Below are positions 63,704 to 63,879 of a DNA stretch of 64,000 bases, one piece after another. Within the stretch, counting starts at the first letter, position 1. The number at the start of each line of letters is the position of its first letter. A program made the translations under genes and the position numbers. The notes under the pieces are model-generated. The model worked only from the letters and a program-made list of their open reading frames with translations, did no database searches and was not told the DNA's origin. This stretch comes from Escherichia coli. GTDB lineage: Bacteria > Pseudomonadota > Gammaproteobacteria > Enterobacterales > Enterobacteriaceae. The DNA lies in assembly GCF_003334335.1 (NCBI RefSeq), contig NZ_QOWQ01000014.1, one strand, 5' to 3'.

Positions 63704-63879
63704 GCCTGATGCGACGCGTAATGCGTCTTATCAGGCCTACAGTGAACAGAACCGTAGGTCGGATAAGGCGTTCACGCCGCATCCGACAGCCGTTGCCTGA
63801 TGCGACGCGTAATGCGTCTTATCAGGCCTACAGTGTACAGAACCCCAGGGCGGATATGGCGTTCACGCCGCATCCGACA
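63704..63879. repeat. tandem BIME cluster of four REP sequences in alternating orientation
   Basis: GCCTGATGCGACGCGTAATGCGTCTTATCAGGCCTAC at 63704..63740 and 63795..63831, alternating with GTAGGTCGGATAAGGCGTTCACGCCGCATCCGACA-type REPs at 63754..63788 and 63846..63879. Confidence 0.88.

Follow-up and report, generated by a model that had tools for sequence, protein, structure and literature searches.

What kind of element fills the interval between trmJ and iscR in Escherichia coli, and does it do anything for the genes on either side? REP and BIME sequences are the commonest repeats of E. coli, and a REP array at this position could be either a working part of the locus or a passenger. The 64,000-nucleotide stretch of DNA that we analysed, referred to here as the window, ends in the suhB/trmJ/iscR region of the E. 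coli chromosome, where iscR follows trmJ in the RefSeq annotation of identical matches. An original prediction had described four REP units of two types, alternating in orientation directly after the trmJ stop codon, and had suggested that they insulate or stabilise the trmJ transcript or bind gyrase or IHF. Pattern matches and repeat searches confirm this description and refine it to two Z2-Y doublets (Table 1).

Tandem Repeats Finder reports a single array (63695-63879; period 91, 2.0 copies, 94% matches, score 335), and a repeat search finds two 91-nt copies (63695-63876) of 95% identity with two palindromes within each. The REPs themselves span 63704-63878 in the order Z2(+), 13 nt, Y(-), 7 nt, Z2(+), 13 nt, Y(-). 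REP1 and REP3 match the Z2 pattern without a single mismatch, with no such match expected in shuffled sequence, and when the window is shuffled with its dinucleotides preserved, neither the Z2 nor the Y pattern turns up. What looks like four independent REPs is thus a single Z2-Y doublet present twice in tandem. Its last palindrome has diverged, the GTAG foot of REP4 having become CCAG, and forms the weakest hairpin of the four (z -1.8). Open reading frames of 32-84 aa over the array were discarded as by-products of the palindromes.

Table 1. Features of the trmJ-iscR interval and its neighbours, in window coordinates.
Feature	Position	Strand	Description
suhB	62033-62836	-	
trmJ coding sequence	62955-63695	+	246 aa; stop TAA 63693-63695 (open reading frame list; RefSeq gene name on identical matches)
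Tandem unit 1, type A	63695-63785		91 bp; Z2 REP, 13-nt linker and Y REP, GTAG foot intact
Spacer, trmJ stop to first REP stem	63696-63703	+	8 nt, CAGCCGTT (read from the sequence)
REP1, Z2 type	63704-63740	+	GCCTGATGCGACGC-GTAAT-GCGTCTTATCAGGC with CTAC foot; RNA hairpin -21.4 kcal/mol
Short tail-to-tail linker	63741-63753		13 nt, AGTGAACAGAACC
REP2, Y type	63754-63787	-	2 mismatches to Y consensus; hairpin on + transcript -18.8 kcal/mol
Tandem unit 2, type B	63786-63878		identical Z2 REP, linker and degraded Y REP
Head-to-head spacer at unit junction	63788-63794		7 nt, AGCCGTT
REP3, Z2 type	63795-63831	+	same sequence as REP1; hairpin -21.4 kcal/mol
Second short linker	63832-63844		13 nt, AGTGTACAGAACC
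REP4, degraded Y type	63845-63878	-	5 mismatches to Y consensus (hand count); hairpin -14.9 kcal/mol
IscR type-1 operator match (context only)	63923-63947	+	1 mismatch; 44 nt downstream of array
IscR type-1 operator match no. 2 (context only)	63948-63972	+	3 mismatches

The iscR promoter is iscR's own, strong and autoregulated, and PiscR is well studied. That the iscR control region begins downstream of the array, at the edge of the window, was also part of the original prediction, and the two operator matches from 63923 onward establish it; they are the only IscR type-1 matches in the whole window, obtained with the motif attributed to Giel et al. 2006. The iscR ATG is expected at 64056 by alignment to K-12, just past the window edge. 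PiscR is reported to carry type-1 sites (PMC12594620).

To which class of element does the array belong? Ton-Hoang et al. 2012 (PMC3333891) define BIME-2 by z2 and y units, a short linker and multiple tandem copies in strain-variable number, and BIME-1 by z1 and y units joined through the L linker, which is long and conserved and in many cases contains an IHF site. The trmJ array consists of two exact Z2 units and two Y units, the first of these with 2 mismatches and the second degraded, in alternating orientation across 13-nt linkers; it is present in 2.0 tandem copies here and in 1, 2, 3 or 4 copies in other E. coli, and it is extragenic, lying between the trmJ stop at 63695 and the iscR control region. 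Judged by its sequence, the trmJ-iscR array is a BIME-2, and it is very unlikely that its palindromes would fall outside the Z2 and Y families of the genome as a whole. The window itself supplied internal controls for this classification, in the form of two near-identical BIME-1 elements (11898-11980 and 42064-42146), each composed of a Y unit, a linker of ~35 nt containing GCAAATTCAATATATTGCA, and a 29-nt Z1 unit. BIME-1 shares with the trmJ element the Y palindrome and the layout as an inverted pair, but differs from it in its ~35-nt linker, its 29-nt Z1 and its single-copy state, as against a 13-nt linker, a 37-nt Z2 and tandem copies at trmJ. As a separate observation, the linker of the BIME-1 at 11898-11980 matches the Rfam entry ES036 (CssrF), a small RNA, at 11932-11974.

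These differences bear directly on the proposed partners of the array. An IHF-binding element of the BIME-1 kind (RIP or RIB) is suggested by the class-level link of REP elements to IHF (Ton-Hoang 2012, PMC3333891). However, the IHF sites described there sit in the long L linker of BIME-1, whereas the trmJ array pairs Y with Z2 and not Z1, has 13-nt linkers and contains no match to the IHF consensus WATCAANNNNTTR; in addition, it differs from the true BIME-1 pair in the window. We give this reading next to no credence, and the IHF half of the original prediction is not supported.

The gyrase half, by contrast, finds support in published data. The K-12 W3110 allele of this locus is listed in Supplementary Table DS3 of Sutormin et al. 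2019 (PMC6379681) as 'BIMEs2 2662088-2662353, 265 bp, <iscR-<yfhQ', and the element is therefore already catalogued. The K-12 BIME-2 at iscR-trmJ (yfhQ) occupies the same locus between the same flanks and is built of sequence-identical units A and B, arranged A-A-B in K-12 and A-B in the window, which is thus one 91-bp unit shorter. For the K-12 interval, the table gives the gyrase cleavage sites mapped by Topo-seq in W3110: 3 under ciprofloxacin, 6 under its combination with rifampicin, 0 under microcin B17 and 4 under oxolinic acid. In the literature, the three-unit allele is thus shown to be, at the level of DNA, a transcription-independent cleavage site, with more sites under rifampicin. 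Most BIME-2 intervals in the DS3 rows that were read have zero cleavage sites, and gyrase cleavage or binding in vivo is true of a subset of BIME-2. Gyrase binding at the locus is supported for the K-12 allele, the one to which the gyrase data belong, and constitutes the sole direct functional evidence at this position. The array is, then, an ordinary element, of a known kind and at a catalogued locus. The NC_000913.3 record annotates no REP feature there, so that no official REP number can be assigned, and a search for literature naming trmJ, iscR and REP together returned nothing relevant.

The layout also invites comparison with REPIN/RAYT systems, in which the repeating unit is likewise an inverted REP doublet. 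The GTAG foot, which is recognised by TnpA-REP (Ton-Hoang 2012, PMC3333891), is present on REP1, REP2 and REP3 of the trmJ array. Unlike REPIN/RAYT systems, the locus has no RAYT gene nearby, and mobilisation of the trmJ copy is something that we infer.

How stable is the array within the species? Because a single genomic unit aligns to both units of an array-containing query, only the flanks were used, 150 bp on either side of the array, and the span of their match in each of the 5,426 complete E. coli genomes was converted to an insert size. The locus was found in 5,426 of 5,426 genomes. Allele shares were taken from a sample of 59 genomes chosen at even steps down the match ranking: 31 carry one unit (53%), 6 two units as in the window (10%), another 6 three units as in K-12 and BL21 (10%), and 1 four units (2%; strain B19374, checked), while the remaining 15 carry a different insert (25%). 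The REP alleles follow the formula (A)n-B (n = 0-3), in which all A copies share one sequence. The 1-, 2-, 3- and 4-unit alleles all sit between flanks of 100% identity (300 bp compared), and copy number therefore shifts faster than point mutations accrue. Unequal exchange or slippage between the Z2 halves, which are identical, may have given rise to such a series, as may recombination by RAYT/TnpA-REP. One short match, in the genome labelled H100, was rejected as a variant, the assembly being poor and rich in frameshifts.

The different insert is an unrelated, GC-rich repeat of ~123 bp with the core GGTCCCCTCGCCCCTTCGGGGAGAGGGTTAGGGTGAGGGG, which occupies the BIME-2 slot in 1,432 of the 5,426 genomes (~26%, at a coverage of at least 80%), for example in strain 2014C-4423 (L003:733-860) and also in O157:H7 genomes. 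It exchanges the last codon and stop of trmJ (...KA-TGA versus ...KAE-TAA), leaving TrmJ one residue shorter. Partial copies are present at other chromosomal sites, and the repeat has no match in Rfam. A candidate name is 'boxC'; the one paper found gives no consensus for comparison, and the repeat is left unnamed here.

Beyond E. coli, one genome per species yielded 80 TrmJ loci in the Enterobacteriaceae (L009-L088), 75 of them with both trmJ and iscR. The intergenic distance in these 75 species ranges from 125 to 474 nt. In the loci that were read, the last ~112 nt upstream of iscR, comprising operators, promoter and leader, appear conserved, and the variable part of the spacer is the stretch directly after the trmJ stop codon. 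This slot is empty in 13 of the 75 species (spacers of 125-150 nt), among them Yokenella, Trabulsiella, Atlantibacter, Franconibacter, Cedecea and Mangrovibacter, and filled in the other 62; in 47 of these, an RNAfold-based count shows the extra sequence folding into one or more stems with a minimum of 10 pairs. In the examples read by eye, a subset of the 62 (E. albertii, Salmonella, Citrobacter, Klebsiella, Kluyvera, Enterobacter and Superficieibacter), the filler is the REP type of the respective genus, often beginning within about 15 nt of the trmJ stop. A Superficieibacter species (L042) has at least three tandem copies in the slot. In Citrobacter sp. FP75, the trmJ stop codon TAG itself lies within a REP foot. 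E. albertii has a single Z2-Y unit with its GTAG foot intact, which places the origin of the element before the split of E. coli and E. albertii. In the comparison of orthologous trmJ-iscR regions that the original prediction called for, the array is thus polymorphic in copy number, another element takes its place in about a quarter of E. coli, and some species have an empty slot. Any local function must therefore be dispensable or replaceable.

Does selection act on the array at all? When the six distinct units known from the two species, E. coli and E. albertii, are aligned, standard pairs account for 98.6% of the stem cells, and variable columns are fewer among paired positions (6 of 48) than among unpaired ones (20 of 46; Fisher p = 0.001). 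Covariation in these six units amounts to one compensatory change, C-G to U-A, and is not significant (32 of 500 shuffles). Folded as a transcript, the whole region reaches -96.2 kcal/mol (z = -6.4 against shuffled sequence). One may nevertheless consider the array a neutral or selfish repeat without any selected role, driven by RAYT and recombination, with the gyrase and hairpin effects incidental. In vitro, BIMEs are substrates for cleavage and recombination by TnpA-REP, and BIME-2 elements are known to vary in copy number (Ton-Hoang 2012, PMC3333891); the one to four copies on identical flanks, the other repeat in 1,432 genomes, the 13 species with an empty slot and the decay of REP4 would all be expected of such a passenger. 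The conservation of stems relative to loops and linkers speaks against it, as do the age of the element, which predates the E. coli/E. albertii split, and the structured filler in most species (the 47 of 62 long spacers with a stem of at least 10 pairs). We regard neutrality as a possibility to be taken seriously, although we lean against it.

If the array acts in the trmJ transcript, by what means might it do so? The presence of strong, GC-rich hairpins directly past trmJ would recommend a Rho-independent terminator. An intrinsic terminator combines such a hairpin with a U-tract, however, and all four hairpins lack a T-run behind them; a terminator scan over the array was likewise negative. 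This reading is very improbable. Most REPs are without a U-tract (Harris et al. 2026 preprint), and the same preprint describes REP325 as a partly Rho-dependent attenuator of its downstream gene and a context-dependent stabiliser of its upstream mRNA. By analogy with REP325, a role of the trmJ array as a stabiliser of the trmJ 3' end or as a partial, Rho-dependent attenuator is plausible. The preprint also reports a strong dependence of REP effects on their context, and finds that mRNA half-life is not in general extended by terminal REPs; its supplements do not contain trmJ and mention iscR only in an expression table (Harris 2026). The original prediction, which had proposed insulation or stabilisation of trmJ, had named the 3' ends of this transcript as the place to look. 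In the K-12 Term-seq data of Adams et al. 2021, no 3' end is listed in the trmJ-iscR spacer. This absence is not decisive, since the identical tandem units may have prevented unique mapping of reads, and multi-mapping may hide a 3' end there. Insulation of iscR from trmJ read-through may in any case be irrelevant, because iscR has a strong, autoregulated promoter of its own.

A different effect on the same transcript is conceivable at the level of translation. As the first REP hairpin begins 8 nt past the trmJ stop, a terminating ribosome could run into it and stall, with cleavage of the mRNA and a drop in TrmJ output, so that the array would serve as a translational brake. The portion of PMC12306157 that summarises Liang et al. 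2015 puts REPs that stall terminating ribosomes at a distance of under 16 nt to the stop codon, and the trmJ array, at 8 nt, falls within the 15 nt given there for translation-regulating REPs. Every REP allele of E. coli shares the 8-nt spacing, as does E. albertii; hand counts give about 9-13 nt in Klebsiella, Kluyvera, Enterobacter and Citrobacter amalonaticus. Proximity to a stop codon is, however, a general property of REPs and may reflect a preference in insertion and not a function. We think a brake of this kind rather unlikely.

The array might also be suspected of encoding a small RNA. Its central part (63757-63828 on the + strand, spanning REP2, the junction and REP3) matches Rfam RF02564, naRNA4, with 72.2 bits, above the gathering score of 59.5, and naRNA4-like RNA has been proposed to act with HU in bridging REP cruciforms and condensing the nucleoid. 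The source of RF02564 is REP325, an array with the Z2/Y architecture seen here. The match is one of sequence and structure similarity only, and as REP325 consists of 12 alternating Z2 and Y units, it restates the REP sequence that the two loci share. REP325 (yjdM-yjdN) resembles the trmJ array in being a tandem, alternating Z2/Y array between co-directional genes; it differs in having 12 palindromes, in lying inside an operon and in preceding a gene that depends on read-through, whereas the trmJ array has 4 palindromes and iscR its own promoter. Moreover, the naRNA4 model is disputed and has been largely refuted for REP325, its founding case: Harris et al. 2026 found no stable ternary complex of HU, cruciform and naRNA4, no REP-REP contacts by Hi-C, and a nucleoid unchanged upon deletion or over-expression of REP325. 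A naRNA4-like role at trmJ is extremely improbable.

Taken as a whole, the explanation that we favour, and consider probable, is that of a BIME-2 in the 3' untranslated region of trmJ which changes rapidly in copy number, is a gyrase site in its K-12 form, and may act on both supercoiling and RNA. A Z2-Y doublet would have been amplified to two tandem copies in the trmJ 3' untranslated region. At the level of DNA, the array is flanked by the trmJ and iscRSUA units, which run in the same direction, and for this reason it could take up or obstruct supercoils generated by transcription immediately upstream of an IscR-controlled promoter. At the level of RNA, the REP325 precedent suggests that four stable hairpins without a U-tract in the tail of the trmJ mRNA may block 3'-to-5' exonucleases, and that the array might act as a partial, Rho-assisted attenuator that reduces read-through from trmJ into iscR.

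What is the relevance of such an element? In itself its significance is small, given that it has already been catalogued and mapped for gyrase. Its value lies more in the locus, which offers a natural allelic series beside PiscR, with 1 to 4 units, a non-REP replacement and, in related genera, empty sites. The series could be used to follow the effects of REP copy number on mRNA 3' ends, read-through, translation termination and gyrase recruitment. We may also speculate that the slot after trmJ is a recurrent landing site for REPs in the Enterobacteriaceae, that the E. coli element, with its 1 to 4 copies, lies at a strong gyrase site 44 bp before the IscR operators, and that copy number or replacement by the ~123-bp repeat is a heritable dial set at the level of the strain. 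If so, the dial would set the amount of TrmJ and the extent to which transcription and supercoiling from trmJ arrive at the isc promoter, and a tRNA-modification gene would be tied to Fe-S cluster homeostasis. We hold this to be a long shot.

Some further features of the region were recorded in passing. The Term-seq data of Adams et al. 2021 contain a strong RNA 3' end within the trmJ open reading frame, 60 nt past the start codon (MG1655 position 2663263 on the - strand, corresponding to ~63015 on the + strand of the window), with scores of about 2.1e5 and 2.6e5 in two conditions. No obvious terminator hairpin with a U-tract lies upstream of it, and it could stem from transcription that ends prematurely or from processing that leaves a 5' fragment of trmJ. 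Also within the trmJ coding sequence, at 63039-63067, is an inverted repeat of 11 bp without mismatches (on the - strand, GGATTAACCAG...TTGGTTAATCC), which the terminator scan flagged on that strand, where it is followed by CATTGTTTTC; it may be due to chance. Elsewhere in the window, Rfam matches above the gathering score comprise the antisense RNA AsrC (18441-19272, -), the rncO leader (22055-22269, +), ohsC (25682-25758, -), GlmY (34938-35085, +) and 5S rRNA (91-206, +), all of which are expected for this region of the E. coli chromosome.
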